Of a stretch of DNA of 52,410 nucleotides, positions 1-28,240 are shown piece after piece. A program made the position numbers and the translations under genes. The stretch is taken from NCBI GenBank assembly GCA_032718475.1, contig JAUCBJ010005129.1, positions 1 through 52,410 of the forward strand, read 5' to 3'. A model generated the notes under the pieces. That model was not told the DNA's origin, did no database searches, and saw only the letters and a list, made by a program, of their open reading frames with translations. This DNA comes from Nemertoderma westbladi. Taxonomy: Eukaryota > Animalia > Xenacoelomorpha. Position 1 is the stretch's first letter. Each line of letters starts with the position of its first letter.

Positions 1-234
1 TTCTTAAAGTACAATAAAGCCACTACTATATTCAAGTATTATTGGTAAGCATAGTATTAGGAATGCAAAGTTCAGATCCTTGTGTCTCGGCTAAACCAAG
101 CTCTGGGTAGACCTTGGAAACGACTTGCCTCTTCACACTGACATTGCTTCGTGCGATATTGCTCTTCTACCTTATATTAAATAATACATATAGTATCGTG
201 ATGTCCATATAACAGTAGCGTAAAACGCAAATAA

Positions 235-540
235 ATCTGTTAAACCTTTTGACCATCTGTAATTCTAGTCGATTAAGATATCGCGGCACCCACCGATATA
301 CTTGAAAGACAAATTCTAGAATCAGTGGTTGACGTCCCCAGACAAGCTCTGGGATAAATCGGTGCCCATCTTAAATATTAATTTAATATTTAGTAAAATC
401 TGTAAAATTCAGATCCTTTAAATTTCTAGTCAATTAAGATATCGCAGCACTTACCGATACTCTTAAAGGACAATTGTCATAGAATTAAGGATCCTAGGCC
501 CCCAGACCTGCTCTGGAATCAAATTGTGTCAATTTTAACA
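235..540 (+). repeat. Degenerate ~165-bp tandem duplication in the pol-to-accessory spacer
   Basis: ttctagtcgattaagatatcgcggcacccaccgata...ccccagacaagctctgg recurs as ttctagtcaattaagatatcgcagcacttaccgata...ccccagacctgctctgg. The same duplication is present in C (~30380-30700). Confidence 0.7.
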
Positions 541-1338
541 TCAAATAATAAAATTCACGGGAATAAATTTAAATTCATATTTTAAATGAATTTCATAAAT
601 TGTCATTTTGTGCAATTTATAACATTCCCAAAATTCCATTAATTAATAGATCATGGGAGCGGAGATTCATCCTATTGAGTGTATTAGAGTGCGAGAATCT
701 CCAACATATAGTCAATAGCCGATAAAATTAATAAAATCATACATAAAGAGGATATTGACAATTAAAGAATTATTATTAAATAGCATTCCAGATCTGGATG
801 CATGAGAATTACCCTAATTCTACCGCTAGCATTCCATAATGTCACCATAGCAACACCCACGCTAGAATTAGAAGCAAGTTAAAAGAACAATAGAAAGCTT
901 GTCCCATTGCATAGCATAGAGAATATATAGCACACTGTTAGTATCCAAGGATACACAGTAATAACGTGACATTCTGGAAGGCACTGACTAACGGACAAAT
1001 AGCCTGTATGTGTGCAGTTGGTGACAGTTGTGTGGAATTTGTGCGTTTATAGGTGAATGTTACTGCTAAAGTATGTTTACAGTAGCTAGTCGCAATTGTA
1101 AAAGTAGCCCAACTCTCCTATAGAAAGAACCTAAGTGGATCCAAGCCTTTGGGACGGACAGTGGAGTGACTTGTGCCGGTTATCGTTGTCGTGCTGTTGC
1201 TACATGTTGGCGTAAACACCGCGACGATGGTACATCGGCGCTGAGAATCCCACTGTCCGGGGGCAAAGAGAAGTAGGCAGCAACGCCCGCTCGCCTAAAT
1301 ATAAACTTATTTGATATTAATAAACTCAGATAGCAGAT

Positions 1339-2400
1339 ATGACGGAGTTGATAGAAGATGATCTTGGTATTAGGGAGCGATATACTCTACCTTTACAAGC
1401 ATTTGTGGATAGCTTAATACGCGGTGAAGCCGATCCAACCATTACGGAGGACGATGGTCGTTATATCGAACCGCCGATGTCCCAAGAGCAACTTGCGTGT
1501 GAATTGGACTATCGAAAATTCACCACTCGCTATACGAATCGTAATGGTACGTATATGGACTTCTTAACTACCGGCCATCCTATTGATTTACATGATACGG
1601 ACGATGTAGATACAGAGAGGGAAATGGTTCTCTTTAAATATCATACCCAGCGGAGTCGTAACGATAAACCGAGAATAGATCACGAAAATTCTATTCGTAA
1701 TAGACTGGAAAGAGAAAACGTTGAAGAACCGGATAAACGCATCGACTTCAACGAATACCTAGAATTTTTGAGAGAAACCTATCTCAACATCGCTAGTCAG
1801 CAGAACTTAGAGACTCGATATCCTCAAGGTATACATCACGACCCTGTGGTAGAACTCAAACGGCTCTATTTCACTATGATGTATCTTACCGCCGATCGTC
1901 CACTACCTGTTATCCCGGATAGTTTTGAACAAATGGAAGAATATTGCAAAACTGGAGAACGTTCACCCGCGTTTCCTCTACAGGACGTACGTCTTTGGTA
2001 TTATTGTGACGAATGCCCTAGACCTAACCAACAAACTGAAAGACACAAACATCCGCGGAGACGTTGCGCTAAACACAGTTTTATGCGTTACACTTACGAG
2101 AGTTTCGAGCGAAACCTGTTCGACGTACCACCTACGATCGCTCATCTTAAACGATCACTGAATAAACCCATGATCAGAGTTCCGGAATACTCGGTCAGGC
2201 CTCCTCATTCCCTAGTGAGACCTCAAACTCTTGATCCTAACAGTATCACTGATCCTCCCGAACTATATTCCCTGTTCAAAGACTTAGTGTTACCCGAACA
2301 ATTAATCGGTGGTGCCCCGGTAGTGGGTTCGTTAGACATTCGCCCATCCTACTTAGCCGGATTGGGACGCGGGCAGCTAATATCGCCCTTTGATCCTTAA
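1339..2400 (+). CDS. Accessory ORF of element A, N-terminal part (353 aa, unknown domain with a CxxC..H..C..H cluster)
   Basis: ATG-initiated open frame containing WYYCDECPRPNQQTERHKHPRRRCAKH. A degraded homolog lies in C (~28700-29569, -). Confidence 0.75.
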   Translation: MTELIEDDLGIRERYTLPLQAFVDSLIRGEADPTITEDDGRYIEPPMSQEQLACELDYRKFTTRYTNRNGTYMDFLTTGHPIDLHDTDDVDTEREMVLFKYHTQRSRNDKPRIDHENSIRNRLERENVEEPDKRIDFNEYLEFLRETYLNIASQQNLETRYPQGIHHDPVVELKRLYFTMMYLTADRPLPVIPDSFEQMEEYCKTGERSPAFPLQDVRLWYYCDECPRPNQQTERHKHPRRRCAKHSFMRYTYESFERNLFDVPPTIAHLKRSLNKPMIRVPEYSVRPPHSLVRPQTLDPNSITDPPELYSLFKDLVLPEQLIGGAPVVGSLDIRPSYLAGLGRGQLISPFDP

Positions 2401-5400
2401 TCGTCCAGGATTAAACCCGATGCAACCCGCCACGGAAGTCGAAGAGAGCGTTATAAGAAATGCTTTAGACGCCATTCGACAGAAAATCGGAAAGGGAACA
2501 CAAGATTGTTTAGAGAAACGTAAATTACAACAACAAGTCCAATCGGTGAAGGAGTTAGCCTTGCCACAGTTCGATAGAGAAATCCAAAACCTCGAGGAAG
2601 ACATCGAGCTTGGACGCACGTATTCTCTACAAGAATTTTTAGATGAACGCTTACAGAGACAAGCGGAAGAAAATCTACTCGAGGAGAAACACACGAAACT
2701 GGAAGAGAGAGAAGAAGCCGCATTAGCCCAACCTGAAGCTCAAATGCTCATGACGGACCTCTACTCTAACACCGTTCGTCATCCCTCGATGATTCCACAT
2801 TTCGGAGACAAGCTCTTCGCGACGATACAACCTCAACCGGTTGATATCAGTACAGGATCGCAAAATCTTATCGCTGACGCCCCTATGTTACAGCGTCCGC
2901 CGATCGAGGCCGCTCGTGTTGACGGTATACTCGTTGAACCTCCGGACAATCGAGCGGATCTTGTCCGTCGTATGGTACACGATGTCAACATACGCGCTAG
3001 ACCTTTACAGAACTCGTTTTATGGCATTAAAGACCACCCTTATTACGTTAATCTGACTCAATATTATATGGTAAAACCAGAAGACCCGACACATAATTTA
3101 AAGTTTCTACCACTAATAAATCCTCTAGACATTGTCGAACTCGAACAATTGCAGAAACATCTGGATCAGTTAGTAAAGGTAAACTCATTTAGAAAACCAT
3201 ATAACATTTCTCGAATCGAGAAAGATATAGAACCTCCTTATAATCTCGATGGATTTATTAAAACTCGATTAGTCCATTGGAATCTAGATGTATTATTTGA
3301 AGAAGAGAAAATACAAAGATATGGAAATGTGGAGACGTATACCACTCGGCACATGAAGTATAGTGATCTCCCTGACGCTAACCAATGCGCCACCTTGTGG
3401 CATCCAGTAGGGATGACCCTAGAGAACGCCACCAAGGAGTGGAATGAAACTCTTAATGTTATTGAGATGTATGGAGTTGTCACCTACGATAATGAAGGTA
3501 GCGTTCTGGTCGGAGAACTAGGAACTACGCGCATGATCCACATACGCGGACTAGCTGGTTCTACCCACGTGTTTACTCGAGCGTGTTCCGACGTGATTGA
3601 TTATTCTTTTGAAACTCTCACCGAAACACAAAAGAATCTCCGACATGGACAATTCGAACTCGCACAGCGTTACGTCATTGACACCGAACGCAAACCGGCC
3701 ATGGGCATCGATGGATCGATGTTACCCCAGCCCGTACTCGAGATGTTGTTCAACGAAATAATCCTTAAAATCGGCTCAGCTGTTTATGGAGATCTCCAAA
3801 ACGACTTTCGGAATATGGAGAACATTCCATACCCTTTCGTTGATACTCAGCTGATTGCTCCCTGGGCAGAAGGTCGAGGTTTCTTCCGCACCATGTATGC
3901 TAATACGTCTAGCAACATTACAAAGGTGCAACGAACTTCCATCGGACATCTTGCCTTTCAGGAATACGGATGGAATTTCAAAGTCGGAAATCCCATTAAC
4001 TATCAACAAGTATACGGAGACCATTATTCTCGATTATACTTTGATGGACCATTGACCGCACCTGGCGCCGTGTATAGCTTCATGAGTGTTCCACTCCGTC
4101 CCTCCTTAGCTATATACACGATCTTTGAAAACACCGCACTTGCCGGTTGGCTAGCCGATGTGTGCAGTCGTACCATACGCGCCCATCCATTAATATTTGG
4201 GACCAAACTCGCTAAGCTAGATGAACATAATAAATTCATCCGTTTCGAATGTTTCCGGCGATTTTTAACCCCGTTCCGCAATGTGGATAGCCAATTTAAA
4301 GACCGCGCTTTGACCAAGCTCAGCCTAAGAAACTCAGCTGCAGAGAAGTTGGATAGCGCTGGATTCGCCGTTTTCCAAGAGATTTGTATATCGAACTTGC
4401 ACTCCTCTGTTATACAAAGACCTCGAATCCCCACAGGTTATTCTGTCGTGGAAATTCAGACAATCGGTCCACCTGAAGAGACAGACACGCCCACTTCAGC
4501 TATGCACTTGGAAGACGAACCAATATGTCTAGAATCTGAGGAGATTCAGCCTATCGCGCCCCGGAACAGCGACAACGATTACATCATAGAATGGTATCAA
4601 GGTCCACAGTGTCTCACTGCGTACGATTATCGACATGCCAACTATGTTTCTAGGCAACGTTGTCGGTTATGCGCATCGAGAGACCATGATACGCCCATGG
4701 ACACCAACGTCCGCTGTTCCTATTTCCAAGAACAACCGACTATGGAAATTTATTGCGCATATTGCAGACTCAATAACTTGCATATCTTTGCGGTTTGCCC
4801 TCAATTTATGACTCAATGTCACCATTGTCAACTAAAGGGACATGCCAGTTTCGATTGCCCTTTTAATCACGATTTGGAAAGCGTAGATGAAATGATCACA
4901 CTACGTTACATCAGAGCTTGGGAAGCGAACACTGATTTACATTGTGATTCGCGCCATCGCTATTATCCCGGACGCGCTTACGAAGGAGTTTATGCGTTCC
5001 ATCCTTATCTATTCGCTTCGGTCGAACAGAAATCACGCATATCGAGTTACGAGCTACTGAAGCGCGTCGGAGAATGTATTTCAACCAAATTCGTACGCAA
5101 ATTTCTCAGGAGTGTTAATCCTAGCGACCTTCATTCCTATAACTTAATCAATTATATCCGTCAGGATCCGGACTATGGAGACTTGTTTGTTAACTCACAC
5201 CCCAAGTTACAGGAAGTATATCGACGGCCTTACGAATACCGAGCCCGCGAACGCGAGTTGGAAAGAACCATTAAACCCCGGAGGTTTCTAACTGCCTATG
5301 GTCCACCCACGGCCCTCGTTCAGACCACTCGTAAAGGACCCGTAAGAGCGGCTGTCTTAAAACGAGCTCTCAAAGCCGTTAGACCCCTCTCCCCCGACGT

Positions 5401-5590
5401 TGATGTCAATCAACCCGGTACTTCGACTGGCGGATACACCGACCATAATCCTACACCCTCTGATGCAATCATATTGCACCCTTCACCCAGAAGTTATAGC
5501 CCTCCTTGTAAAGTGGCTCGCCCCAAAGAGAAAAGGACTCTGGCTAGCTTTAAAAAACTGCGTAAACGCCATCCGCGCAAGAAAGACTAA
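2390..5590 (+). CDS. Accessory protein of element A: coiled coil, DEDDy 3'-5' exonuclease-like domain, Zn-finger array, basic NLS-like tail
   Basis: 1066-aa open frame. ExoI-like VVTYDNEG, LPQPVLEMLFNEIILKIGSAVYGDL, FVDTQ, YTIFE. Zn units CRLCASRDH..C, CAYCRLNNLHIFAVCP, CHHCQLKGHASFDC. C-terminus KKLRKRHPRKKD. Confidence 0.8.
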   Translation: MILNRPGLNPMQPATEVEESVIRNALDAIRQKIGKGTQDCLEKRKLQQQVQSVKELALPQFDREIQNLEEDIELGRTYSLQEFLDERLQRQAEENLLEEKHTKLEEREEAALAQPEAQMLMTDLYSNTVRHPSMIPHFGDKLFATIQPQPVDISTGSQNLIADAPMLQRPPIEAARVDGILVEPPDNRADLVRRMVHDVNIRARPLQNSFYGIKDHPYYVNLTQYYMVKPEDPTHNLKFLPLINPLDIVELEQLQKHLDQLVKVNSFRKPYNISRIEKDIEPPYNLDGFIKTRLVHWNLDVLFEEEKIQRYGNVETYTTRHMKYSDLPDANQCATLWHPVGMTLENATKEWNETLNVIEMYGVVTYDNEGSVLVGELGTTRMIHIRGLAGSTHVFTRACSDVIDYSFETLTETQKNLRHGQFELAQRYVIDTERKPAMGIDGSMLPQPVLEMLFNEIILKIGSAVYGDLQNDFRNMENIPYPFVDTQLIAPWAEGRGFFRTMYANTSSNITKVQRTSIGHLAFQEYGWNFKVGNPINYQQVYGDHYSRLYFDGPLTAPGAVYSFMSVPLRPSLAIYTIFENTALAGWLADVCSRTIRAHPLIFGTKLAKLDEHNKFIRFECFRRFLTPFRNVDSQFKDRALTKLSLRNSAAEKLDSAGFAVFQEICISNLHSSVIQRPRIPTGYSVVEIQTIGPPEETDTPTSAMHLEDEPICLESEEIQPIAPRNSDNDYIIEWYQGPQCLTAYDYRHANYVSRQRCRLCASRDHDTPMDTNVRCSYFQEQPTMEIYCAYCRLNNLHIFAVCPQFMTQCHHCQLKGHASFDCPFNHDLESVDEMITLRYIRAWEANTDLHCDSRHRYYPGRAYEGVYAFHPYLFASVEQKSRISSYELLKRVGECISTKFVRKFLRSVNPSDLHSYNLINYIRQDPDYGDLFVNSHPKLQEVYRRPYEYRARERELERTIKPRRFLTAYGPPTALVQTTRKGPVRAAVLKRALKAVRPLSPDVDVNQPGTSTGGYTDHNPTPSDAIILHPSPRSYSPPCKVARPKEKRTLASFKKLRKRHPRKKD

Positions 5591-5660
5591 CTGTTTAGAG
5601 TATTTACATATATTAGAAACTGTGATTTTTGTATATTTATAAACTTGAATCCCATTTTCT

Positions 5661-5668
5661 GGGAGCGG
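5661..5668 (+). promoter_or_regulatory. Polypurine tract of element A
   Basis: gggagcgg lies immediately before the TG LTR start and is identical to the PPT of C (28163-28170, -). Confidence 0.75.
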
Positions 5669-6480
5669 TGTAAAAGCTTTTGCGGATATACTCAGTCCCC
5701 CTCGCCCGCAAGGTACCGTTATAGGTGTTTTAACGGACATAAAAGTCATTCTTCTATATACGTGCTTTGGAGGACATGGTAAGGCAAAAAACCCGCAATG
5801 CACCAAATACCCTTGCACAGCTTAGCCTTGATAATTCAGATTACGACATCTAACAGCTGGTTGCTGACATGGAAACGGCCATTGGACACATGGTTCTTTG
5901 TTTGCTTAACAGCCAATCAGAGCGATTTTTTCTGTGGATGTGGAGCTTTTGGCAGATCATGCTAGGAGTGTTCAGTCTTACTGTTTTTTCTTGATACTGT
6001 TGTGTTGTTTCGATCTAGGCCAGGAACACCGGCTCTAGAGTCAATTCGTTTTTATACTTTAGAAGAAACATTAGTAGGCTTAAATTATAGAGCGTATAAC
6101 TGTTAACTTATCTTATCTCAATTCGGTCTTACATTATCGGTTCAACATACGTTATTATACTGCTGTTTACTGTTGTGTTTTGGTTGAATATTATTTGGAG
6201 AACATCTATAAAGAACCCAAATTTCCCAATTTTCTTGATACACTACAGGTTAGAGAGACGGGTTATATATAGCGATTGCGACTTATATTATTGTGGTTTG
6301 TAGTGAATTTAATGCTATTTGATAAGCACTACATGAGTCCGTTGCTGTTCTCTTTATATATGATAAAATTCATTGACGGTCGGCAAATTAGTGAGCAGTA
6401 TTGTGTGTTACCGGTAGTGTGCCTGATTGTGACTGATAACTAAGCATTTCCTAAAGAATGCGCCTCATACGTGAATCATA
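5669..6480 (+). repeat. 3' LTR of element A, 3'-truncated
   Basis: Starts TGTAAAAGCTTTTG and shares patches with the C LTR (e.g. aagcatttcctaaagaatgcgcc). Stops abruptly at the junction with the B LTR. Confidence 0.75.
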
Positions 6481-7091
6481 AGGGATCCCGACTGGATTTG
6501 TAGACTACGCGTCACCGTGTTTACCTTAGGGATTGTGTTGATGTCTAGGCCGAGGCCGTTGTAGCGAAAATAATAAGAGTTGATGTTGTCTCTTGATATT
6601 TAGATAACAGTATTAGTAACACAGTAAGGATTGCAGATAAGCATTGATACTATGAGATGGATACCGGTAGGTGTGTGTGTTGGTGATGGTGATGGTGTGA
6701 AACATCACCGGTCTGCACTAAACCTGATAACTGGGTAACTGTACCGGTAACTAATATGCATTGATAATATATGTGATCACTCCTACACTGCTGTGGCCTT
6801 TCACCTAGTGGATGCTCTCCCTCGCCCCTATTGGCTGATAATCTACTTCACGCCCCTCGCCCTCCCCTCTCTGGGAGTGCTTCCCCCCCTGTTGGCCCCT
6901 GCTGGTTGTTTCCCCTCCCGAGGTGTTTTGACCTCTAACCTCCCTTTGTGTGGCTTTGGGGTTGTGTTGTCCCCGGTGTTGGTTGTGATACGAGATTGGT
7001 TATTGCCAATCTCGTATCTCCAACACATTGCTGAAAAAGGTGCCACTTCCCATTTTATGAGGGTAATGCAGCGGAACTGAATCTGCTTACA
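6479..7091 (-). repeat. 3' LTR of element B (about 11 terminal bp missing)
   Basis: Direct repeat of 20181-20789 with a few percent differences by eye. Ends ...gcttaca next to the PPT ctccccccc. Confidence 0.9.
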
Positions 7092-7100
7092 CTCCCCCCC
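7092..7100 (-). promoter_or_regulatory. Polypurine tract of element B
   Basis: The minus strand reads a G-run then AG immediately before the TGTAAG LTR start. The same tract is in D (48209-48217). Confidence 0.8.
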
Positions 7101-7854
7101 ATGCTATCTTCCCGGTGAGAAGATAGCATCACCCATAAGTGCGCTTCAATTCCGCTGGAACCCTATCTACTATCGGGTGTGGGGTGGAGTTCTTTTCTTG
7201 GAGTCGGCTTTCCAGGCCGCTCCCTCTGGGTATGATATTACTACCCCTTCTTGGTGCAACCGCAACCTATGTTGCACCAAGACATCTGGCGTCTCGGTTC
7301 GAGACAATTGTGGACTCTTCTCACACAATTTTTTATATCTCCACTCTACTCTAGACTGACTCTAACTTCTCTAGCTCCACTCTAACTCCACTCTAACTCC
7401 ACTCTACTTTCGAACCTCTTTGTCCCACACTCTGCCTCTTACTCCTCGCTCCCCACATTTGAATTACACCTGTAATCTTTCCACACGTGTCAACACTACA
7501 TCTCATTATCTCCCCTGCGCTCTTGTACTCAACCCTTACTTACATTGCCCCATTCACTCCTGATGAGCCTCACCCTCCCCTTCCGTGCCGTCGCACTTAA
7601 GAAGTGTGAAGTGTGTAGTGCCACGTCTAGTCTCCCGTCCTCCTGTCATAGTCGATTGGTCCCCAGTCCCACTAGCTAGTTGGAAAAGGTTACATGACTA
7701 TAGTACTTACTTTGATTATATTGATTTGAATTATACTCTATTGATTATTACATACGTACATACTAATTGCACTTTTATTAAATTTGCACTTAGGAGTTCG
7801 TATTACTTCGCGTGTGGTGCCTTCCAGGCATCCCCACATCTCCCCCTCCAAGTC

Positions 7855-10291
7855 CTAGTTCGCTCCTCCCGTCTTTGGGAACCATCTCAGTTCCTTCCCT
7901 CTGTTGTTGTCCTGTCTCGGTCGCTTCCTGGTTGTCACCGCTTCCTTGCTCTTGTCCTCCTTAAGGCTCCTCATCCTTGCCGTTACCTCCTTACTGATTC
8001 CCGTGGTCGATTCCTTGGGCGCTGGTGTTATTAGCTCCCGGTATCGCTTCGCAGGTGGCCCCTCCGAATGCCCCTGCTGCTTTCCCCTAGTAGCGTCCCA
8101 CAAGATCACCTTCATGGCCCGCGGCACATGCTCCGCCAGGAAATCTCTGAACTCTCCCCGGTTCTCTGGCGCCCATCTATCTAAATACCTCTGTGTATTG
8201 ATCACTCCACCATACGATGCCGCCGTCGATGCTGCGTCATGACGCCGACGTCGGCCCACTCCTCGAAGATCTTAAACTTCTCCTCGTCGTGCATCCAGTC
8301 GCACTGGCGTCCATAGTGTCTCCGAAAGTTACACTTAGAGCACCGGTTGTGCATCGTGGACACGCCCCCATCCACGGCAGTAGAGGCAACACGTCCCCTT
8401 CTGGAATCAAGCAGCTCTTTTCCTGGTGAGTAAGCCTCCCGCAGTAATTGCAGCCATGTATCAACGCATCCCGCCCCAAGTCGTCCTTTGCCCCAAGCGA
8501 TCTCCTCGGTCTATGGAGCCGTTGGTAAGCAAACTTCTGGACGTTAACGTCTCTGTCCATGTCTATGTCCTCATCTTGCCTCGGCATCGTCTCTCCGAAC
8601 ACTACCTGTGGTGCCATTCCCGGTTGCTCGCCCAACCTGATGGTGCTCCCCGCGAAATCCATCGCCGGCTCCTCATGCACCCAGGCCCGCTTACCGGGTT
8701 TATCCCAGAAGGCCCTCACTCCGCTGGCCGTCACCACTCTCCCGCCAACCCAGTCCGTGTCTGAGTGGCCGATCCTTCGATGGGCGGCATCTCCCCTAAC
8801 TCGTCGTCATCCTCATCCCCCGCTGGGAGTGGATCCAAACCCGGTATCTCGGCAGACCCACTGTGTCCCTTCCCGCCTTGGCTCTCGCCCGTAACTTTCC
8901 ATCCTTCCAGTTCCCTTGGTCTTTTCTTCGCGAAATCTCCCTCGGCGCCTGCTGGCATGGGCATCGCCTGCAATCCCGATGTCGCCTGTTTCGGCGATCC
9001 TTCCGTCCATCCCAACTCCCGCCCCAGAGACTCGCCCGAGCTCCCTGATCCCCACTGTAACTCGTCCAAGGCCTGGGTCTCGAACCCGTAGCCTCTCCTC
9101 TAGCTTCTGCCTCTCTTTAGTCTGCCTCCCTCCTTTCTTGTCTGACGAATTCTTCCAATCGCTTCTCATCTAGTCTATCCGCCTCCAGCTTCTCCCACCT
9201 CTGATATGGTGTATCCACCCCCCTGTCTACTAGATATCGGCAGTTATAGTATACCGACTCGCCCTTCCGCCCCGGGTGGTCTGCCAGACCCTCGAAGGCC
9301 ACTTTTAAGGCTCTTCTGCAGTTCAGGGGTGATCCCGACAGCAGAAACGCCATTGGCTCTCTTCCGATAACCACAGCCATGAATAGGTTTAGTAAACCTA
9401 TCATTATCCAATCCTCCTGCAGGATATATCGCTTCTGATATATCTTTATCACTCCTCTCCGGAATTGATACACCTCCTGTTTCCCTGGCCTCGCTCCCCA
9501 CTTCAGCGAGTTTGCCAAATCCGCTCCATACTCCTCCCTGAATTTACCCCAGTCCATCAGCTTGTGGCAGACGAGCCCCATCAGCTGGCCCATCGCCACT
9601 GCTCCGCAATGTCCTGTGTTCTCTACTAGTTCAAACCCGGCTGGCCCTGTCATAGCCATGTAGACCGTTTGCATGTCCAGAAGGTTGGGGGTCTCCGGTC
9701 CGACGATCCTCTCCGCATCGTCGCGGATCGCCGATCCCACCTTTATTGTCGACTTCTCCCTTACTAGGTTCTGCACCGCCCTTGGCAACCGGTTCAACTT
9801 CGGCCCGCTCTTCTTCCCATACGTTCCCAGATCGAACAGGAATATGTCCCCATTTTGCGCAGCCAAATGTAGAAGTATGGTTCTGGCCGACCCCGCCGAC
9901 CCTCTTCTCGAACCCTCGTCGTCTTCCACGGTCCCTTCGTCGTCTAGGACCATGTATCCTCCCCTGCTGACGGACTCTACGAACCTCTTCCAGTCCTTTC
10001 TCGGTGGTTCCCTCGGATACTTCGGTATCCTGAACTTCGCCTCATCTCCCTTCACTACGTAGTGGAAATGCTCGAGGATCGCGTTGTCTAGCTATGGTGT
10101 CCCGTAGGTCCCGACCAGCCTCCTCTCGTGCACCTCCCTGAAATGGTCCTGCAGCGCTCGCGCCTTGTGACCTTTCTCTAACCGCTCGTAGTATCCCCTC
10201 GTCTTCTCCTCCGGATGCCTCTGGGTGAAATCTACTAGTATCTCCTTTCCACCTATTCCGCCTTTCTCATTCTGACCAGTCTCTCCGCCAT
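7855..10291 (-). pseudogene. Accessory gene of element B: DEDDy exonuclease, acidic linker, Zn-finger array, basic tail; frameshifted
   Basis: ORF 9117-10055 has YMVLDDEG, ILLHLAAQNGDIFLFDL, LPRAVQNLVREKSTIKVGSAIRDDAERI, LLDMQ and YILQED. Downstream fragments give CNYCGRLTHQEKSC and CSKCNFRRHYGRQC. Colinear with the more intact D copy; the start (ATG at 10291) is tentative. Confidence 0.82.
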
Positions 10292-10789
10292 TTCGAACGC
10301 TCCCGATCGCTCACCTACAAGGTGGTGCCTTACCAAGGCTCAATATAGATGAGTGATGTAGTTAGGATGGTCTGTGCGGTCCGATATTGGCCTATCTCTC
10401 TCAGAACACTAGGTTTTTTACACTATTTTGCCTATGTACCCCCTAAAATGCTAAATTTCCCTAAATTCCCTAAATCTGTCAGATACTTTTATTATTGTTC
10501 TAGAATTTTCTGTCTACTGTTGCTATAATTTGTTGAATTTTATTTTTAATACTAATTTTTAATTCTGCTACTGTGCTATTAATATTTATAATGGATTATT
10601 TTGTCTAAATAACCCCTATACTTTGCATACAGGGTAGACTAGCTATTCCTTAATGTGCTAGTCTGCACCAGGTAACCTCCTGGCCCTGTATCTAACATTC
10701 TGACCTACTCTATGGGCTGTGCAGTACAGTAGTATGTCTCGTGCGGCCTACACGGTCTGTCTTGCTGTACCCACGTGCCCCCCTCTCAC

Positions 10790-11490
10790 TTCTTACTACT
10801 AACCCTACTAACTCTCTAACTCTACTAACTCTCTAACTCTTACTAACTCTCTAACTCTGACTAACTCTTACTAACTCTCTAACTCTACTAACTCTCCAAC
10901 TCTTACTAACTCTCTAACTCTTACTAACTCTTACTAACACTCTAACTCTTACTAACTCTTACTCTACTAACGGTACTACGTACCCACTTACAACTCTAGC
11001 TGACTCCACTAACAGTACTACATACCCTCTTACACTCTAACTAACTCCACTAATGGTACTACGTACCCTCTTACTCTCTAACTAACTCCACTAACGGTAC
11101 TGCGTACCCTCTTACTCTCTAACTAACTCCACTAATGGTACTACATACCCTCTTACTCTATAACTAACTCCACTAACGGTGCTACGTACCCTCTTACACT
11201 CTAACTAACTCCGCTAATGGTACTACGTACCCTCTTACTCTCTAACTAACTCCACTAACGGTACTACGTACCCTCTTACTCTCTAACTAACTCTGCTAAC
11301 AGTACTACGTACCCTCTTACTCTCTAACTAACTCCACTAACGGTACTATGTACCCTCTTACTCTACTAACTCTTACTAACTTCTACTAGCGGTACTGCGT
11401 ACCCTCTTACTCTACTAACTCTTACTAACTTCTACTAGCGGTACTGCGCACACCCTCTTACTCTACTAACTCTTACTAACTTCTATCTGC
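10790..11490. repeat. Compound tandem repeat in the B spacer: ctaactct-type short repeats plus ~10 copies of a ~40-bp unit
   Basis: The unit actctctaactaactccactaacggtactacgtaccctctt is repeated over ~10960-11470. Confidence 0.9.
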
Positions 11491-11739
11491 CTACTTACTT
11501 ACTACTATGTACTATCTACTATTACTTTCTCTTTCTAACTTTCTAACTTTCTTTCTTATTATTTTATTTTTATTTATTATTTTTTTTATATATTTGTGTG
11601 GGAAGGGCGTCTTGCACTCAATCCCACCCCACTCAGTCCAACACTTGGACGACTAAACTCTATGGTGTCTCTTCTAGTAAGCAGCACTTCCCTACAGCCC
11701 TCCTGTAGGTCTTCCTGTCCTTTGCTCCTATCTTACCCC

Positions 11740-13230
11740 CTATCCGCTCTTCCACCGATCGGACTCTTCCGTCCTCATCGGGTAACTGTCTACTATTCTT
11801 GCTAGCCTCCACTGATTGTTGATGATTGTGTCGTCAGTGACGATCACTAAATCACCTTTCTTTAACTCTCTAGTGGTGTTTCTCCACTTGCTCCTCCTGT
11901 GTAATGTGGGTAGGTATTCCTCGACCCACCTCCTCCAGTACTCTGCGCTTATCGCCTTGGCGACTTTCCAACTCTGATGGGAGTGTATGTCATCTGGGTC
12001 TACACCCCGCATGTCGATGGTCGCCGGGCTTTCCATCAGAAAGTGGCTTGGTGTTAGCACGTCTAGTGATTCTGGGTCGTCATTTTCTGGATATAGCGGT
12101 CTGCTATTGATGATGCCCTCGCACTTAGTTAGCACAGTCCTTAGTATGTCCTCCGTTACCATGTGGGTGTTCATCAACTTCGTCATCAGACGCTTGGAAC
12201 TACCCACAAGTCTTTCGACGCATCCTAAAGTATGTGGCGCGTATGGCGTCCTCCTTTCCCACTTCACCTGTCGTCTCCTCATGGCTGCCCTGACTTCTTC
12301 TCCTTCCAGGATCTCCAAGGCCTCCGCTAACTCGTTCTCCGCCCCCACAAAGTTGGTTCTATTGTCGGAATAGATCACTGCGATCATTCCACCTTTGTGG
12401 TCTCTGAATCTCTCTACGGCATTGATGAATGCCGATGCAGTTGCATCTTGGGCGAGTTCTATTCCTACCGCCCTCGTGTTGTTACATACTAAGATGATGC
12501 TGTAGCATTTCTCCGTGTGTCGCATCACCTTGATCTTGATCGGTGACCTATCTTTCAGGAAGTGTGGCCCGTGCTGCCACAACACTTCCTTCTTTAAGAA
12601 ATTGTGGCGTGCCACGCCCCTCAATAACAAGTCTGCTGGGTTCTCGTCCATTGCGCAGTAGTGCCACCTTTCCAACCCTGTGGTCGCCCTTATTTCGTCC
12701 ACCCTATTGGCGACGAATATAGGGTATCTCGTCTTCTCATTGTGCAGCCATCCAAGCACTACCATGGAGTCCGTCCAGTAGTGTATTTCCACTATATTGG
12801 GAATAGTGTCCATCAAGTAGGCCGTGGCCCTTACTCCTAATCTCTCAGCTGTCAACTCGAGTTTCGGGACTGATGCTGAATCTGGCGGCGTTGACTTTGC
12901 TTTACTGTATGCGAGTCTGGGCTCATGAGCCCCCTTTCGCTGTACTAGGTAGAGTGCCGCTCTGTATGCTTCTAATGATGCATCGGAGAACATGTGTAGG
13001 TCCAGATCCGTCATGTCCCCATCCGGGAAATACACGCGTGGCATGCTGTACGTCCCCATCTGTTCTAAATTCCCCGTCCACTTACTCCACTGCTTGCTGA
13101 TTTCTTCCGGGACCTCTGTATTCCACTCGTCCTTTAATTTATATACTTTCTTAAGTATCTGTTTCCCCGTGACTAACAGTGGGGATGCTAGGCCTAAGGG
13201 ATCGTATATCCTTGCTATTTTACGATACAT
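11740..13230 (-). pseudogene. pol: BEL/Pao pol of B: RNase H and internally deleted integrase
   Basis: IYDPLG, LHMFSDAS, PKLEL, YWTDS, NPAD, then a direct jump to CYSIILVC..IYSDNRTNF..ERLV..LTPSHFL. The HHCC region and first catalytic Asp region are missing. Confidence 0.88.
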
Positions 13231-15169
13231 AGCCCCTCTTTGTGTGGGTGTCCGGGCCCTCCTGGCTCAGGTGGTACTTTAACTCATCTGTCTCCCGGTT
13301 CCACACGATCCCCAGTGCCTTCTGCTGAGACTCCACTCTTTTGTCCGCCAGGTCCTGTCCCTTGGCTGCTGTGGGGTTGTCCATGGTCGACTCTGGCCGC
13401 CTGTCCTCTATGGCTTCCATAAACTCATCTGAGCTGGATTGAAACTTGGTCAGGTTAAATCCGGATCCTTTCAGGATGTCGCGAACCTCGCGCCCTGTGT
13501 CCAGTAATTCTTTAACCGTGTTTCCAGACTCCATCCCGTCGTCTACATTGAAGCCGCGTCGAATCATATCGACCGCTTTAGCGCTGTACTTCCCCTCTTT
13601 CCCTTCTACCGTATCTCTTACAGCCATAGTCGTTGTAAATGAGGACGACTTGGCCCCCATGTTCTGCACCACCATCTTGTACATCGGTATTGTCGACGGT
13701 TCCTCGTCGCCGTTGTACCATAGGAAGCGCTGGCTGTCGCTATCCTCCCCTGTCACACGAACTTGGTTGAACATGCCTTCGATGTCGCAGGTGAAGGCGT
13801 GTCTCCCATTTCTAAATCTCTGTAATACCTCAATCCCCGAGTTGTAGATATTGGGGCCCTCCAGCAGATAGTCGTTTAGGCACTTGCCGTTGGTTTTAGC
13901 TGATGCGTCAATTACCATCCGCAATTTACCTTTCTTTGGATCTAAAGCCACGTGAAGTGGCAGGTAGTAGGTCCTGTCCGTGTTCAGTTCGTCGACCGGC
14001 AGCTTCACGGCCCATCCTTTCTCGACGTACTTCCTTATCATCTTATGGATGTACTCATCCTTCTTGGGGCTCCGTTTCAGCGTTTGCTTCAGTTTACGAA
14101 GCCTCGTGAGTACCATCCCCTTGTTCTCTGGTAGCGGTAGTTTTGGTTGTTTCCACACCATGCCTATGGTGTACCGCCCCTCGTCGCATCTCATCGACTC
14201 CTTCACACTTTGTACCGCTTGTTTATCCTCTACCGAGGTTCCGACCCCGGTCTCCTTTAATCCCTCAAAGTCCTGTCTTAACAATCTCTTTAGCTGCTCC
14301 TCCGCTCCTTCATCTTCCATCTCCCTCATAGTTCCCGCGAACATGCACCCCGATGTCTCCGACATCCTAAACGGAATCTTGGTTTTAAATGGGCCGCTTA
14401 GTGTCCACCCGAATGGTGTTAGAATTGCCATCGGATCACGCTGTCTGTCTTCCCCGTAGACCGTTTGCATTCTCTCGTGAGCCGTCGGGCAATCCATTCC
14501 CACTATGATGGATACCTTCCTGACGTCCACCTCTGGTATCGAGAAATCGATGTTGTCCAGGAATCTGTATTGTTCGACCTCAATGTTGGTTGGTCGCCTG
14601 GCATTTATGTTGATCGATTCTATTACCTGGATGGGGTCGATGGTCGCCCCATATTCACATCCCGGTGCTATCGCTGATATCTCGCACCGTCCCATCCTCA
14701 TCTCCAGGACCTCATCTTTGCTGGAGATGGTTGTTACCGCCATCCTACTTGGCCTCGTCTTTAGTCCTATCTCTTTGGCCACCCAATTCTCCACCAATGT
14801 TAAGGCTGCTCCGCTGTCGACCAGCATCAATGTGGTTACTGATCGACCTCCTTCTCCTATCACCCTGACTGGCACTACCCCGAGTAATACCGTTCCCCTT
14901 TTCTTCGCCCCTACGGTGCTTGTCGCCATTGTCTGCCCTTTACCTTGACCGAACTTAATGGGTGTTTCTTTGCATTGATCAGCTTTGTGTCCGCCCGCCA
15001 CACATCGATGACAGATTCCACTCTTCCTTGTGTATTCTACGTGATCTTGTTTGGGCAACGCTTGCCAATACCTGCAGTTCATGGTCTGATGAAGTGCGTT
15101 CGAATGCAATTGGCATTTGTTGTTTGGGTTATAGCCGTCCCTATACAGTGCGCTGTGTATCGCACTCAC
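13220..15169 (-). pseudogene. pol: BEL/Pao gag knuckles, aspartic protease and RT of B
   Basis: CHRCVAGGHKADQC, MLVDSGAA, YYLPLH, RMVIDAS, DIEGMFNQV, MGAKSS, FNVDDG. Frameshift to the RNase H ORF. Confidence 0.9.
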
Positions 15170-15177
15170 GTTCGTAC

Positions 15178-18100
15178 CTATGTCCCTACTGTTCTTATTG
15201 TTTGGGTTTGGCCTACTGGGTGTGTTGGGGTTATATTTGTTTGTGTTGTTATTTTGCCCCTGTCCACTCCATGGTGTGGCCCACCCCCGGCTATATGTGG
15301 ACTAGCAGTCCCCTGCGTCTCCGCGTATGTCAGCGATTGTCTAAGCTTTGGTAATGCATTTGCCGTGTTGTGTTCTGGTTTCGGCCTGTTATATTCGGTC
15401 TTTGGCGCCCTCCCCAGACTATCCTCGCTATAGACTGGTTCCGTGATCAACTCTGCTTCGTAGTTGGGGAAGTTCGACATTTCTTCTAGGCCCGGTTCCG
15501 CACCTTTCTTCTCCCAGGTGGAGAAGGCGATCTTTCTCCATATATTACGCAGCCAGATCGGCAGTGCCTGTGCTATCGTGGTGATATTATTAGATGCGTT
15601 GAGTTCGTATGGCGCGTCTAGTGTTTTCAGCACGATTAACGCCTTCTCGACCTTGTTCACAAACGTCTTTATGCTAACAGGGTTATCCTGTAGGCCACCC
15701 GATGTTATACCCCTCAGGGTTTGCCGGATGATCTTGGCTGGGTGTCCGTATTCCCTGTCTAGGGCCTGCCATGCAGTCGTGAAGCCACCCTTGATGACCT
15801 GATACTGCCTCACGATGTCGTACGCTGGGCCTCCTGTGTATACCTGTAAATATTTTAGGCACTCCGCCTGCGTCAGGTTCTTAGTTAATATCTCGTTGCT
15901 GTACATGCGCCGGAATTGCAGGTATTCTTCTGGCCTACTTCCGTTGAATTTAAATGACTCTACAGGTGGTAGCTCGATTCTGGTCTTGAGTGCATCGATA
16001 AGTGTTGCCATTCCCATTGCCTGTGCTTCCAATGGGTTTGAAGGATGCTGTACAGATTCTCCCGTTGGGTGCGGTCCGCCCATCCGGCCTGTTGAATTTC
16101 TTTGCGTCGGATATACCATCGGGGGTAACGGTCCCCTCCATATTTCCATGTCGCAAGATCTGTTCTCGTCCAGGGGGTTCGATGTTCATATTCCTGTTTG
16201 AGTGTATTGTAGATATTGTAATGGGGGAATGTCACCCCCCACCGGTGGTATGCTTGGTACTGGGGTTGATGTTAATATATTGGGGCCCATACACCTATCC
16301 GCAATAACTCTCCCCTCGCCTGGATATATGTTATGTCCCTGTATATTATAGTCATACTGCTGTGCTGGTACCGGTATAGGCCTATCCACTTCTAGCCTAC
16401 CTACCGGTATATACTCCGCGACTTCCGGATCTAATCCCATTGTTCGCGCTACCCTATCGCCTACACTATCTCTCCCAGCATGGCCTATAGTATGTGCAGT
16501 AAGGCCTACAGTATGTCCTGCAGTCTGTATGTGTCCTTCCAGACCGAAGTTTAACCTCCACGAATAGTCCAAGAAGTCCTCCCCGCAATAACCGTACTCT
16601 CGATCGGCAGCTATATCCCGTCGGGAAGTATCCCTTTGATCCCCTCTCCTGTTCCCGTCCTCGAACCAGTACGTCCTGTACCCCTCTCCCGGCGTATAAT
16701 ACATCTCGCCAGATAATAGATCTCTCGTCGACCTCCCGTTTTAACTCCACTGTTCTTCTTCCCTCTTCTGACTGGGCTCGACGTCTCGCCCGCTCACGAC
16801 GCCAACCTCCCTCTCTCTAGCCGGTCAGACGCCACTGGGGATATTCGTAATCCCCCTACTATTCTCCGTCGCCGGGTGCTGTGGTTCACCTAACTCGCCC
16901 CGCGCATTATCCGCCGACGCCTGTGGGACATCCTCTGCCCCCCCCCCCCCCCCTCTCGCCACTAATCTCTCATCGTGGGGCACCTGTAGCTCCCCCCCCC
17001 CCCCCCCCCGCTCGCCACCTATTACTTGACTATCTCTTACTTCGCTTCTACGCCCCCTCTCTAGTTGATGCACTATCTCTATTGCGGCTGGGTCTATTCA
17101 CCCCCGCCTCTCCCTCTGCCACTGTGTGGCCTTGCAGGTTCCCATCGGGTTCACTCACCCCCGCTACTCCCTGCGTATTAACTATGTGGCCTTCCAGGCC
17201 CTCGCTGGTCGGACCACCTACGTCTGCTGCGTTTATATTAATAGCACCATTATCAACATTATTATCAAAATTATTTGAATTATTTGAATTATTCTGTACC
17301 GAATTCGGATTATTATTTAAATTATTTTGTATATTTAGGTTAGAATCGGGATTATTTTGCTCGTTTGAATTTAAATTATTTGAATTACTTTGTATGTTTG
17401 GATTTAAATTATTATTTGAATAATTTTGTGCATTTAAATTAGGGATATTCGGATTTAAATTATTATGGTCAGGCAAAATATTATTTCCTGGAATGAAAGT
17501 TTGATTAGGGTTGTCTACTACGGTACTATTAAGGGGGGTGGGGGGGTAGCGCATTTTCTGACCAAAAAGACGAATTTTTGAAACATATCCTATCTGATGC
17601 AGAATTTCATGCTGAATCCAAATATGGAAACCGTTTTCCCACATTTTGCTTAGTTTTCGAGATATCTGGGATAGAATATACTGGCTCCGATATATCGCGA
17701 TATCGGTAAAGGCGATGAAGTTTGGGGTTTGCATTCAATTTCTGCAAATTTCTGTGCTCAGTGGTGCCAATTGGATGTCTCCACGAGAAAGAGCACAAAA
17801 TTTTAATTGAGAAGGTATTTTTTTATGATTATTGGACCTACTTGTCAGTTTATAAGATAACTTCAAGTCTCCGGAATGAAGACGGGACTCGAATAAGTGA
17901 CTCTGCGGTCTTTGTGGGATTACACAGAATAGACTTATTGGTCATCGGAGATCTTCAAAATGTATAATCTCCAGTTCTAGTGGTCGTACGAAGTTCGTTT
18001 TAGGCTCATTCGAAAGCTCTTTTCTTAGAGAACAAAGTTACCATTTGATTTAAGACAAAATGGTTGGGAAGCAACATAACATGAATTTGGGTAAAATATG

Positions 18101-19932
18101 CCTTGCAAATTTTGTTCAAGTTGTGATTGCTCAGGCAGCTTTCAAGAGTTTGCCAAACCAAAAGGTAACTTTGGTCTCTGAGAAAAGAGCTTTCGAATGA
18201 GCCCAAGAGGAACTCCGTACGACCACTAGAACTGGAGATTATACATTTTGAAGATCTCCGATGACTGATAAGTCTATTCCGTGTAATCCCGCAAAGACCG
18301 CAGCGTTGCTTATTCGAGTCCCGTCTTCATTCCGGAGACTTGAAGTTATCTTATAAACTGACAAGTTGGTCCAATAATCATAAAAAAATACCTTCTTAAT
18401 TAAAATGTTGTACTCTTTCTCGTGGAGACATCCAATTAGCACCACTGAGCACAGAAAATGGCAGAAATTGAATGCAAACCCCAAACTTCATCTGTTTACC
18501 GATATCGCGATATATTGGAGCCAGTATCTTCTATCCCAGATATCTCGGAAACTAAGCAAGATATAGGAAAACGGTTTCCATATTTGGATTCAGCATGAAA
18601 TTCTGCATCAGATAGGATATGTTTAAAAAATTCGACTTTTTGGTCAGAAAATGCGCTACCCCCCCTTAATATTAATGCCCTCTAACGTATTATTATTACC
18701 CCCCGCCTGTACGGTTTCACCAGTCTTGGGTCTGTCGTCCGGTCCCTGTAAGTGGGGTATTAACAAACGTTTCCATAACCTCTGGCTCCTCGTAAATACT
18801 ACCCGAGCCAGCCTCACTCTCAGATAATCCCAACTGCGCCAGTTCTAGTCAGCGCTTCGGTTTGGCCTGATATTGCATAAGCCCCCTTAACCGGGCATGC
18901 ATATCGTCCCGCATGCACTTTCCCGCTCTCTCTCTCTCTCTATCCTCTCGTAAACTCTGGTTCACCGACTCTGTTTCTCTCGCCACCCGCTCTCTACGCT
19001 CGCTCTCTATTCTCGCCTCACGCTCTTTATGTTCGTTCATTTCTCTCTCTATCCTCGTTGCCTCTCTCACTTCTCGCTCTTTGCGCTCGTTCTCTACTCT
19101 CGTCTCTCGCTCTTTACGCTCGTTCTCTACTCTCGTTTCTTGCTCTTTAACGCTTGTTCTCTACTCTCGTTTCTCGCTCCTTACATTCCTCTGCCTCTTT
19201 CTCTTTTTGCTCTCTAGAGTTCTTCGCCATCCTTTCGGCCCTCTCCCTACATTCCCTCGCCAACTCTCTCTCTTTCTCTAACAACGCAGTTCCCTCATCC
19301 AACTGCCTCTCTAATTCTTTCTGGTCTAGCGCCACCATGTCTAATTGACACGCCAGATCTATCTCCAACACCCTTCTTGCTTTCGCGGAGGATGTAGCGG
19401 ACTTATCGGTTGCGACGGACTCCCGTCGCCTCTCTGTCCTTCTAACTTTCCCCCGCTTTCTGGGGTTCTCGCTAACTGACGAGACCGAATCCTCGGGGTT
19501 AACCTCGGGTTCGCCCTCATGCGGATCTGCCCAACCCACTAGCTTAATTCCCCTGGCATCCACTAAATACGGCCCTATGTACACTATTTCAGGCTCCATA
19601 ACCCCGGATTGCCACAGTTCGAATAGTTCGGTGGCGACCCACCTCGCTCTCTCACTCGCCAGTTCTTCCTGCCCGAAACGAACTAGATACCGGAAGTGTT
19701 TATTTGACTCACTTAGCCGCTGGCTCAACTTTCCCTGATTTACCTTCTCTCCCTCTTTGGCCTCCTTCAACAGTTTCTTAGTGGCTTTGTAGGCCTGTCG
19801 AAGCCGATCGCTGGTCCCGACGTCCTCTTCGCCGACATCTCCTCCTCCAGCGGCCCCACCGTCGCCGTTCCGGTGGGCCGTCCATCGCCCTCGGCCTGTG
19901 GCTGGCCGGCGACTTCGGTACTCCGACGCCAT
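15178..19932 (-). pseudogene. gag: BEL/Pao gag of B, fragmented and interrupted by a MITE
   Basis: Pao gag core KFNGSRPEEYLQF..CLKYL..AWQALDREYG (15178-16149), preceded by Glu/Arg coiled-coil and Asn-rich segments. ATG at 19932. Confidence 0.8.
17533..18665. mobile_element. Palindromic non-autonomous DNA transposon, Kolobok-like (TTAA TSD, GG..CC termini)
   Basis: TTAA at 17529-17532 and 18666-18669, with ~520-bp inverted arms around a ~95-bp spacer. Removing it restores the gag frame GININSTVVDNP. Confidence 0.85.
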
Positions 19933-20168
19933 CGTGCGTCGACTCGTCCCTTCCTCGTGGTAGTCAGCCGCCCTCCGCTTGGGCTACCGGATTGTCCCTT
20001 GGTGAATCCGGCGTCGCAGGTCGATACCGTCGCGTCGCGGCCTCACAGATCGTTTAGTTGGTATCGTGCGGGGTCCGCGGCGGTGTCCTCTCTCCCTCTG
20101 ATAATCGGGGTCCTTTATCGCTCATCTTTATTCCTACAGTCACAGCTTAGTAGTTGGTAGTTTCACAC

Positions 20169-20789
20169 TGTGACGGGATCAAGGGATCCCGACCGGATTT
20201 CTAGACTACGCGTCACCGTGTTTACCTTAGGGATTGTGTTGATGTCTAGGCCGAGGCCGTTGTAGTGAAATTAATAAGAGTTGATGTTGTCTCTTGATAT
20301 TTAGATAACAGTATTAGTAATAACACAGTAAGGATTGCAGATAAGCATTGATAATATAAGATGGATACCGGTAGGTGTGTGTGTTGGTGACGGTGACGGT
20401 GTGAAACATCACCGGTCTGCACTAAAGCTGATAACTGGGTAACTGAACCGGTAACTAATATGCATTGATAATATATGTGATCACTCCTACACTGCTGTGG
20501 CCTTTCACCTAGTGGTTGCTCTCCCTGGCCCCTATTGGCTGATAATCTACTTCACGCCTCTCCCCTCTCTGGGAGTGCTTCCCCCCCTGTTGGCCCCTGC
20601 TGGTTGTTTCCCCTCCCGAGGTGATTTGACCTCTAACCTCCCTTTGTGTGGCTTTGGGGTTGTGTTGTCCCCAGTGTTGGTTGTGATACGAGATTGGTTA
20701 TTGCCAATCTCGTATCTCCAACATATTGCTGAAAAAGGTGCCACTTCCCATTTTATGAGGGTAATGCAGCGGAACTGAATCCGCTTACA
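20169..20789 (-). repeat. 5' LTR of element B (621 bp)
   Basis: TG...CA termini (minus strand TGTAAG...GTCACA). On the minus strand it carries CCAAT, an AT-rich TATA-like stretch and a TCAGTT Inr-like motif. Confidence 0.92.
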
Positions 20790-20879: not shown

Positions 20880-22210
20880 CCCTATTAGTACCGGGCTATA
20901 AAATGTTGTACAAATATTGGGGGCGTGGGGGGGGGGGGTGGTGGGGGGGTGGGGTCATACTCCTCTAAAATCTAAAAATTGTAACGAAAACGTCTGATTT
21001 TTTGTTTGTACGTAGATTTCAATACTCAGAATCCGAACGAAAGAATATTTCGAAAAAATGTACTGGGGTGGTTATTTTGCAGCACCAAAATTACAAGTCG
21101 TGAACAATTTTCATAAAATTTGAAAGTTACAATTTTTGGCTAATTGTTTTTCAATACAGGTTTTCTGGGGCGCGAAATCCATTTGAAAATATTTAAAAAT
21201 GATCTGATTACTAAAAATTGCTGTTTTATTCCTCTACGTAGGCAAAAAAAATGAAAAATACAAGTAATCAACACATTTCAGTTTGAACACAAAATTTTAA
21301 ATTCACTTATATGATGCCATAAATTCAGATATTCAGGTTTTCTGGTGCGCTGATTCTAATGGAATACATTTCAAATTTGCCAGATCAATGCTACTCGTAT
21401 TTTTCGGCGGATTATGGCAAATTATGGTGCTAGCACCAAATTTCCTACCCATCACCAAAAAGTACAAGTTTGAAATCTCCAGTGCTGTTTTTATTAATTC
21501 CATCGGATTCAGGACCCTCATAAACCCGTATCACGAAAGAAACAATATTACAGAGAAGAGCACCAAATTTTGCACCCACTTCCGAAAAATACAAGTTTGA
21601 GATATCTAGTTAGATAATTATTTATTCTATTGAATTCAGAACCGCCATAAACTTCTAAAACGCAAGAAATAAGTTGCCACAAGCTATTGAACTATTGAAT
21701 AGATTTTCAAAATTTCGTGCTGGTACCAAATTTTGCACACACTCACCGAAAAATACGCCTGGTGCAACTTGTATATATTCCATTGAAACCAGAACCACAA
21801 AAAAACCCCTATAGCGTAAAAAAAAACAGGTTCAAACAATTAATTTACTAAATTGACATATTTCAAAATTTGGTTCTGGTACCAAAATTTGGCACCCGCC
21901 GAAAAAAAAAACAAGTTTGAAATTTCTAAATTAATTTAGATGAAATCCATCTAATTGCAAACACCAAAAAACGGTGTAAATCAAAAGTAGAGATGTTTCA
22001 AATAATATTTCATGAAATGTAATTTTCAAAAACGTCTCAAAAAAGTGCCAAATGTAGGGTTAAAAGATGGTGTTATAATTCGAAAACTTCCAAATATTTT
22101 TGAAAACCGTTTTCACTAATACGAAGACAATAGATTTTTAGGAAAACTCGTAAAATGTCAGATTCGCTACTGCGTTTGTTTCAGAGTTATAACAAAGAAA
22201 CCACGGGGTG
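20880..22210 (-). mobile_element. piggyBac-like MITE, truncated copy
   Basis: Starts TTAA|CCCTATTAG and is an inverted, diverged homolog of 49077-50658. The second terminus is not found. Confidence 0.75.
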
Positions 22211-22363
22211 GTGGTGATTTTTCATATCATATATGCAATCCTTTTTATTCTCGTGCCCCATGTGGCACTTTCAAATTTACCAGAAATTTTCTCTAATGTT
22301 ATATATGAATAACCAAACATAATTTATTGCGATAAAGTTATTCATTCACCATTGTTATTACAG

Positions 22364-22876: not shown

Positions 22877-23102
22877 GTAAGTGATTTATTTCCACTCAAC
22901 TCTCACGTTAACAGCAATATTAAATATTTCATATGTATACATTATATAAACGTTGAAATATAAATATTCATACATTATGTTGGGTACTGATACCTTCCAC
23001 CCGAAACCAATTTAAAGATGTACCTGTTCACTAAATACAATGGTGTGATACCTTTTTATATATTATTAGATAATATATAATAGATCTTAAATTGTTTTTC
23101 AG

Positions 23103-28162: not shown

Positions 28163-28240
28163 CCGCTCCCAGAAAATGGGATTTAAGTCTATCAAATATA
28201 CAAAATCACAGTTTCTAAAATATAAAAATACTCTAAACAG

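Follow-up and report, generated by a model that had tools for sequence, protein, structure and literature searches.

A predicted DEDDy-fold exonuclease gene with zinc knuckles in two BEL/Pao retrotransposon families

Introduction

Juno and Vesta are rotifer retroelements that carry the group label gypsy-type. We compare them here with an arrangement in a 52,410-nt stretch of Nemertoderma westbladi DNA (assembly GCA_032718475.1, contig JAUCBJ010005129.1, positions 1–52,410; hereafter the window), where two BEL/Pao long terminal repeat (LTR) retrotransposon families carry, after pol, an accessory gene whose product is predicted to join a DEDDy-type exonuclease fold to three zinc knuckles. DEDDy third genes (third open reading frames, ORF3s) are known from bdelloid rotifer Juno and Vesta and from Terminons, according to the accessible text of PMC5408684, PMC6431247, PMC5718144 and PMC6338049; the first of these bears out a precedent that an earlier note on this DNA had named. 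As in the present case, the rotifer ORF3 is an RNase D-like DEDDy gene after pol, with no transmembrane segment and an altered catalytic tetrad. The host elements differ, being Juno, Vesta and Penelope-like elements in rotifers and BEL/Pao here, as does the motif, DEED there and DEDE here. The accessible text on the rotifer ORF3 gives only a Cys-His-Cys motif, whereas the present family has a three-knuckle array. The same portion of PMC5408684 leaves the function of the rotifer exonuclease genes unassigned, and describes DEDDy ORFs as having been exchanged among classes of elements.

Other described systems share single aspects of the arrangement. Dada DNA transposons also encode a DEDDy domain, but inside a DDE transposase and with a canonical DEDD tetrad (PMC3706591, accessible part). 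BEL/Pao elements with env, such as roo and mosquito elements with a chuvirus-like glycoprotein, likewise have a third gene between pol and the 3′ LTR (PMC13524379, accessible part); the genes described here differ in having no transmembrane-like segment and an enzyme fold instead. Egalitarian, EXD1, EXD2, Nibbler and WRN share fold and motif order with the element protein, at 10–19% identity and with no subfamily clearly closest; the element protein differs in its ExoIII Glu and knuckle array. The nearest layout is that of TbRND, the RNase D of Trypanosoma brucei, a DEDD exonuclease with a linker and a C-terminal Cys-Cys-His-Cys (CCHC) array (PMC7797062; PDB 7c42), whose CCHC domain is required for RNA binding and efficient 3′ trimming, as the accessible text of that paper describes. 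TbRND was the top PDB sequence match of our family alignment (E=0.0014, knuckle-driven), with a structural Z of 8.2. TbRND, however, is a cellular enzyme that trims guide RNA and has four fingers; the element protein carries three fingers as well as a long linker and an extra C-terminal domain. We would treat the likeness as a parallel; common descent of the fusion is not implied.

What is new is that the exonuclease-ORF3 theme extends to BEL/Pao hosts, in a form that combines a knuckle array with an altered active site and is under purifying selection. The earlier note had named prior cataloguing for BEL elements as a refutation. We found no report of a DEDDy third gene in BEL/Pao in the accessible literature; Repbase, Dfam, subscription journals and supplements were outside the scope and could hold an annotation. 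The word exonuclease occurs 0 times in the accessible text of the BEL/Pao survey PMC3118150 and of PMC13524379, and that of PMC11599104 holds nothing relevant. We propose, at a probability of roughly 45%, that the protein would trim RNA 3′ ends, mainly blunting host RNA silencing of the element.

Results

The accessory gene and its host elements

Four LTR-element pieces, A to D, lie in the window (Table 1). The gene is intact in A, with an uninterrupted open frame (2381–5590). Its protein starts with 340 aa without assignment, followed by the DEDDy-fold domain, a linker, three zinc units, a C-terminal segment and a basic tail. In the exonuclease domain a ∼35-aa insertion follows the third strand. 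D holds the C-terminal half of the exonuclease, the linker, the zinc units and the C-terminal domain, and is cut by the window end. In C an internal deletion near 28395 has removed the equivalent of A 2709–5432, exonuclease and zinc units included. We call the gene accessory because the profile of the family by the International Committee on Taxonomy of Viruses (ICTV) lists only gag, pol and env, and because C exists without it.

The earlier note had described the gene as having three zinc units in both families, in the env position and just before the polypurine tract. Three units are present in both, but in B and in D they are spread over different frames. The gene does follow pol, although in A a second ORF (1324–2400) intervenes. 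In A the 3′ LTR begins 79 nt past the stop, whereas in B a gap of ∼760 nt separates the gene from the LTR side. A hydropathy scan gave no transmembrane-like segment in A or in the B open frame (best 19-residue values 1.18 and 1.65), and so neither product is classed with env-type fusion glycoproteins. The second post-pol ORF means that A has two accessory genes; its copy in C lies at about 28700–29580 (−), and A and C differ in it with a ratio of nonsynonymous to synonymous change (dN/dS) of 0.31 over 273 codons. It has a CxxC...H...C cluster near residue 228, and no match in Pfam, NCBIfam or PDB.

The assignment to two BEL/Pao families is direct for B, by its gag-pol domains. For A it is indirect, since its pol is outside the window and the link runs through its homolog C, to which its post-pol region is 84% identical over window 1–1776, with more matches at 1963–2708 and 5433–5685. 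B and C both have DUF1759, an aspartyl protease, Peptidase_A17 (E of 1e-37 and 2e-34) and DUF5641, and their gag-pol fits the Pao-type order of protease, reverse transcriptase, RNase H and integrase. The LTR pairs, of ∼620 and 1200 nt, fit the BEL/Pao range of 0.2–1.2 kb, and purine runs precede the 3′ LTRs. The two pol lineages compared are deeply diverged, the RNase H and integrase regions of B and C being 28% identical. The earlier note inferred retention of the gene across such divergence; it may have descended vertically, or have passed between families as a module, as in the exchange reported for rotifers.

Table 1. LTR elements of the window, their accessory genes and predicted active-site codons
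Feature	Position	Strand	Remarks
Element A	1–6481	+	3′ part of C-related element; own pol outside window
Second post-pol ORF (family A/C)	1339–2400 (open frame 1324–2400)	+	353 aa from ATG; between pol and exonuclease gene
A accessory gene	2420–5590	+	Intact; 1056 aa from first ATG
A predicted exonuclease domain	3428–4210	+
A ExoI	D 3488–3490, E 3494–3496	+	D370-x-E372
A ExoII	D 3791–3793	+	D471
A ExoIII	Y 4115–4117, E 4127–4129	+	Y579-x3-E583; Glu replaces Asp
A zinc units	4661–4858	+	Cx2Cx4Hx9C, Cx2Cx5Hx4C, Cx2Cx4Hx4C
A polypurine tract and 3′ LTR	5661–6481	+	LTR from 5669, truncated at junction with B LTR
Element B	6480–20789	−	LTR pair and BEL/Pao gag-pol domains; broken
B 3′ LTR	6480–7091	−	∼11 terminal bases absent; 95.8% identity to 5′ LTR
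B accessory gene	7855–10291	−	Stops and frameshifts
B zinc units	8301–8455	−	In different frames
B predicted exonuclease domain	9330–10010	−	Inside open frame 10091–9117; breaks up- and downstream
B ExoI	D 9942–9944, E 9936–9938	−
B ExoII	D 9717–9719	−
B ExoIII	Y 9426–9428, E 9414–9416	−
B gag-pol	11740–19983	−	DUF1759, aspartyl protease, Peptidase_A17, DUF5641; broken
B 5′ LTR	20169–20789	−
Element C	26961–42820	−	BEL/Pao relative of A; LTRs 98.8% identical
C gag-pol	39387–31222	−	Two in-frame stops
Element D	from 47646; accessory part 50810–52410	−	B-family fragment, ∼91% identical to B

Homology of the two accessory genes

The genes of A and B/D had been described as colinear in protein with no evident similarity in DNA. 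Self-blastn (E ≤ 1e-8, at least 80 nt) indeed found no A–B match, and all the quoted motifs were present in the same order. Direct protein comparison weighs against homology: A versus B was not significant by BLASTP (E=0.05), its score was reached by 73 and 25 of 1000 shuffles, and single-sequence hhalign gave E=0.084. These values would suit a likeness by chance, or a gene that is a neutral captured host sequence. A MAFFT alignment placed the motifs in order at 23% identity, and a six-block colinear chain from B, its blocks picked with prior knowledge of the earlier note's motifs, scored 105 on A, where none of 1000 shuffles exceeded 83.

A bridging protein was found by searching 1.84 billion representatives with a profile of A and B. 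The search returned one protein, the singleton P0001 (E=8e-7), which matched the exonuclease domain of A at E=2e-14 and that of B at 2e-4. A aligned with a B+P0001 profile over 217 columns (hhalign, 87.5%, E=3.6e-6), and B with an A+P0001 profile (49.5%, E=1.7e-4). Profile alignment of A and B, a refutation test named by the earlier note, thus failed with single sequences and succeeded with the mixed profile, although these matches are partly circular because P0001 was found by the A+B profile. Two matches lie outside the region of the finding query: P0001 against the third knuckle and C-terminal segment of D (43%, E=8e-13), and P0001 against the A zinc region, scoring above 1000 of 1000 shuffles. 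The score of A against the D piece was reached by 3 of 1000 shuffles. The members have a common layout of exonuclease, linker, three zinc units and C-terminal segment; the C-terminal segments of P0001 and D are clearly alike, and that of A resembles them weakly.

The matches outside the finding query, together with purifying selection in both families (below), largely refute chance or neutral capture, which we regard as very improbable. Homology of the A and B/D genes is supported by these sequence comparisons, and a shared cargo of DEDDy fold is almost certainly real.

Further relatives were not found. Word-based protein searches gave none among 2827 candidates for A 300–900 or 1255 for B, and P0001 495–625 retrieved only P0001 itself (of 10). 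No true relative appeared in DNA-level scans of viral contigs and plasmids, and look-ups by the A and P0001 sequences gave no look-alike. In metagenome DNA scans 0 of 182 candidates passed in one and 2 of 137 in the other; each of the two matched by one knuckle only, within an unrelated ORF, and neither is a true relative.

Fold of the exonuclease domain

The proposed membership of the RNase D/WRN/EXD group held up in PF01612 profiles, in ESM Atlas, and in a partial model of P0001 that matched DEDD nucleases. A hidden Markov model (HMM) of 40 bacterial PF01612 domains, run on nine test proteins, matched P0001 at 6e-6, B at 7e-5 and A at 0.035. With an RNase D subset HMM, A reached 4e-5; gag, pol and other decoys were all non-significant. 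The family aligned with the 40 PF01612 domains over 130 columns (hhalign, 87.8%, E=3.3e-6, score 44.2), while 60 column shuffles stayed at a score of at most 24.5 and a probability of at most 6.5%, and the reversed control at 0.12%. By reference subset, the RNase D and pooled sets gave 86–88%, and the short RNase D-like, WRN-like and Pol I sets 0.3–5%. In ESM Atlas, PF01612 was assigned by 25 of 30 hits both for P0001 (0.94) and for A (0.91, with 150 shared features only). The only NCBIfam matches of the A domain were two RNase D models, at E of 0.014 and 0.053.

AlphaFold, given a family-only alignment, produced a partial model of P0001, with block predicted local distance difference test (pLDDT) values of ∼58–79 over residues 41–140. 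Foldseek returned 32 matches at E ≤ 0.001, including Egalitarian, EXD2, RICE1, EXD1, TbRND, RRP6, Nibbler and WRN, with near ties in rank within the DEDD families. VIA-align gave a best Z of 10.2 (root-mean-square deviation 4.3, 162 aligned), and 15 of 48,161 chains had Z of at least 8. Both lists consist of DEDD-fold nucleases and proofreading domains.

Several results count against this assignment. The model represents P0001 rather than a protein from the window, and its pLDDT averages 38.5, with the ExoIII helix at 50 or less and the domain after the knuckles under 45. A folded by itself from a single sequence reached pLDDT 30. Pfam gave no exonuclease match for A or B, and only E=0.2 for P0001; a PDB phmmer search with B found nothing. 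When the A+B profile was searched against PDB, EXD2 came out at E=1.4, below an unrelated match at E=0.083, and the result was set aside. With profile support for both A and B, we predict a DEDDy domain of DnaQ-like alpha/beta fold. Pfam and BLAST do not pick up such cargo, which may commonly go unnoticed.

Active site and zinc knuckles

The motifs D-x-E, D and Y-x3-E are kept in all three complete domains at 20–28% identity. ExoI D-x-E and the ExoII Asp, as the earlier note had them, align in the reference profile with its DTE and Asp columns, and block scans set their register in A (z 4.1 and 4.3). An alternative ExoI position in A, from MAFFT alignments A3–A6, was rejected, both B/P0001 blocks scoring best at DNE.

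ExoIII, which fits a PL-x3-QL-x-Y-like pattern, departs from the expected YxxxD. In A, B, D and P0001 alike its acidic residue is Glu, giving the motif DEDE; the canonical tetrad is therefore incomplete, and the domain is a DEDDy-fold variant rather than a canonical member. Against activity, the reference domains have Asp there in 35 of 40 cases (32 by pattern, 3 by eye; 5 were mis-parsed) and Glu in 0. We found no paper on an Asp-to-Glu change at ExoIII in the literature searched.

The shared Glu suggests an active site that works in an unusual form, or else a binding-only role. In the latter case the protein would resemble Egalitarian or EXD1, both among the top Foldseek rows, and bind RNA with little or no catalysis; it would shield, localise or chaperone element RNA, or sequester small RNAs uncut. 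Egalitarian carries I-factor retrotransposon RNA and keeps all five catalytic residues, yet can bind RNA and function in vivo without relying on any of them, by the accessible text of bioRxiv 10.1101/2025.08.03.668247. We consider a binding-only protein unlikely here: all five catalytic positions stay acid or Tyr at such low identity, which a dead site would seldom do, and the Foldseek ranks are near ties, VIA-align placing RICE1, diDNase and Nibbler higher. The element protein is probably catalytically active on RNA.

Selection on the accessory protein

The accessory protein is under purifying selection in both families, as the analyses below support. In the B–D comparison, the 86 codons of the C-terminal exonuclease half gave a dN/dS of 0.16 (Fisher p=0.002), and a set of 404 codons gave 0.36. 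For A against C, 96 N-terminal codons gave 0.24, and 51 C-terminal codons gave 0.62, which was not significant; a non-coding control gave 0.60–1.06. Variants of the A domain were drawn from public contigs. Among the best-supported 40 of 167, 33 were silent (30% expected, p=7e-12), 32 were at third positions, 0 were in catalytic codons, and no indel was listed. As listed variants favor common ones, this pattern reflects selection between sub-lineages.

Proposed function

How animal retrotransposons counter small-RNA silencing is, to our knowledge, a largely open question. A gene that is outside the described family plan and kept across deep divergence favors a role in host conflict. In our reading the accessory protein would be expressed from a subgenomic RNA, its knuckles would grip single-stranded RNA and deliver it into the active site, as in TbRND, and the exonuclease domain, with its ExoIII Glu, would trim the RNA 3′ end. 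The protein would act in trans, and its targets might be small RNAs or their precursors. Expression, trimming, action in trans and target are among the weakest steps. That counter-silencing is its main role is a tentative suggestion. A narrower version, unlikely in our view, has a Nibbler-like element-encoded trimmer with DEDE site and knuckle array destroying or mis-trimming host PIWI-interacting and small interfering RNAs in an old BEL/Pao lineage. If true, this would be an enzymatic silencing suppressor from an animal retrotransposon, kept across families whose pol is only 28% identical. Since A is an intact natural ORF with a layout matching a biochemically solved RNA trimmer, activity and substrate are directly testable.

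Two further points weigh against a trans-acting silencing suppressor. The deletion in C may be later than the insertion of C. In rotifers, DEDDy ORF3 has no clear link to copy number in the accessible text of PMC5408684.

Priming bears on another explanation, in which an active enzyme would serve the element's own replication in the particle, its knuckles loading onto genomic RNA and its domain trimming the primer, the RNA 3′ end or mismatched cDNA ends. The knuckles are nucleocapsid-like, P0001 matching retroviral nucleocapsid knuckles at E of about 1e-4. An 18-nt tRNA primer-binding site is expected for Belpaoviridae (ICTV profile), and no TGG-type tRNA primer site follows the 5′ LTR of B or of C. 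Just after the B 5′ LTR (20149–20168, −), 9 bases are exactly complementary to B LTR position 383, equalled in 2 of 100 shuffles; self-priming by B is possible. Such a role has been proposed for the rotifer ORF3s (PMC5408684, accessible part). In C, by contrast, no exact LTR complementarity of at least 8 bases was found, and no pairing comparable to that of B was seen (6 of 100 shuffles). The BEL/Pao elements described so far replicate with no gene of this kind, and a separate post-pol ORF would have no evident route into the particle. We rate a replication role as unlikely, and retain silencing suppression as the preferred reading.

Other features of the window

A joint of 1707 to 4510 that skips 2802 bases, exonuclease domain included, is present in contigs of three of four runs; it is a second deletion derivative of family A besides C. 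The A/B junction (6470–6490) is not a clean insertion, as the A LTR ends near 6481 and the B LTR is ∼11 terminal bases short; the remainder of the A LTR was looked for beyond B and not found. An inverted repeat in the B gag region (17540–18665; arms of 338 and 171 nt, 93–95%) is probably a nested non-autonomous DNA element.

Between the elements are an ORF with a fibrinogen C-terminal domain (22313–22963, +), a non-LTR reverse transcriptase fragment (24045–25094, +), and a 19-bp tandem array, nearly perfect and strongly G-skewed (45154–46760). An element with ∼165-bp internal repeats is present in two inverted copies (20962–22214 and 49112–50567; 76–80%), one of which splits D between the accessory gene and the LTR.

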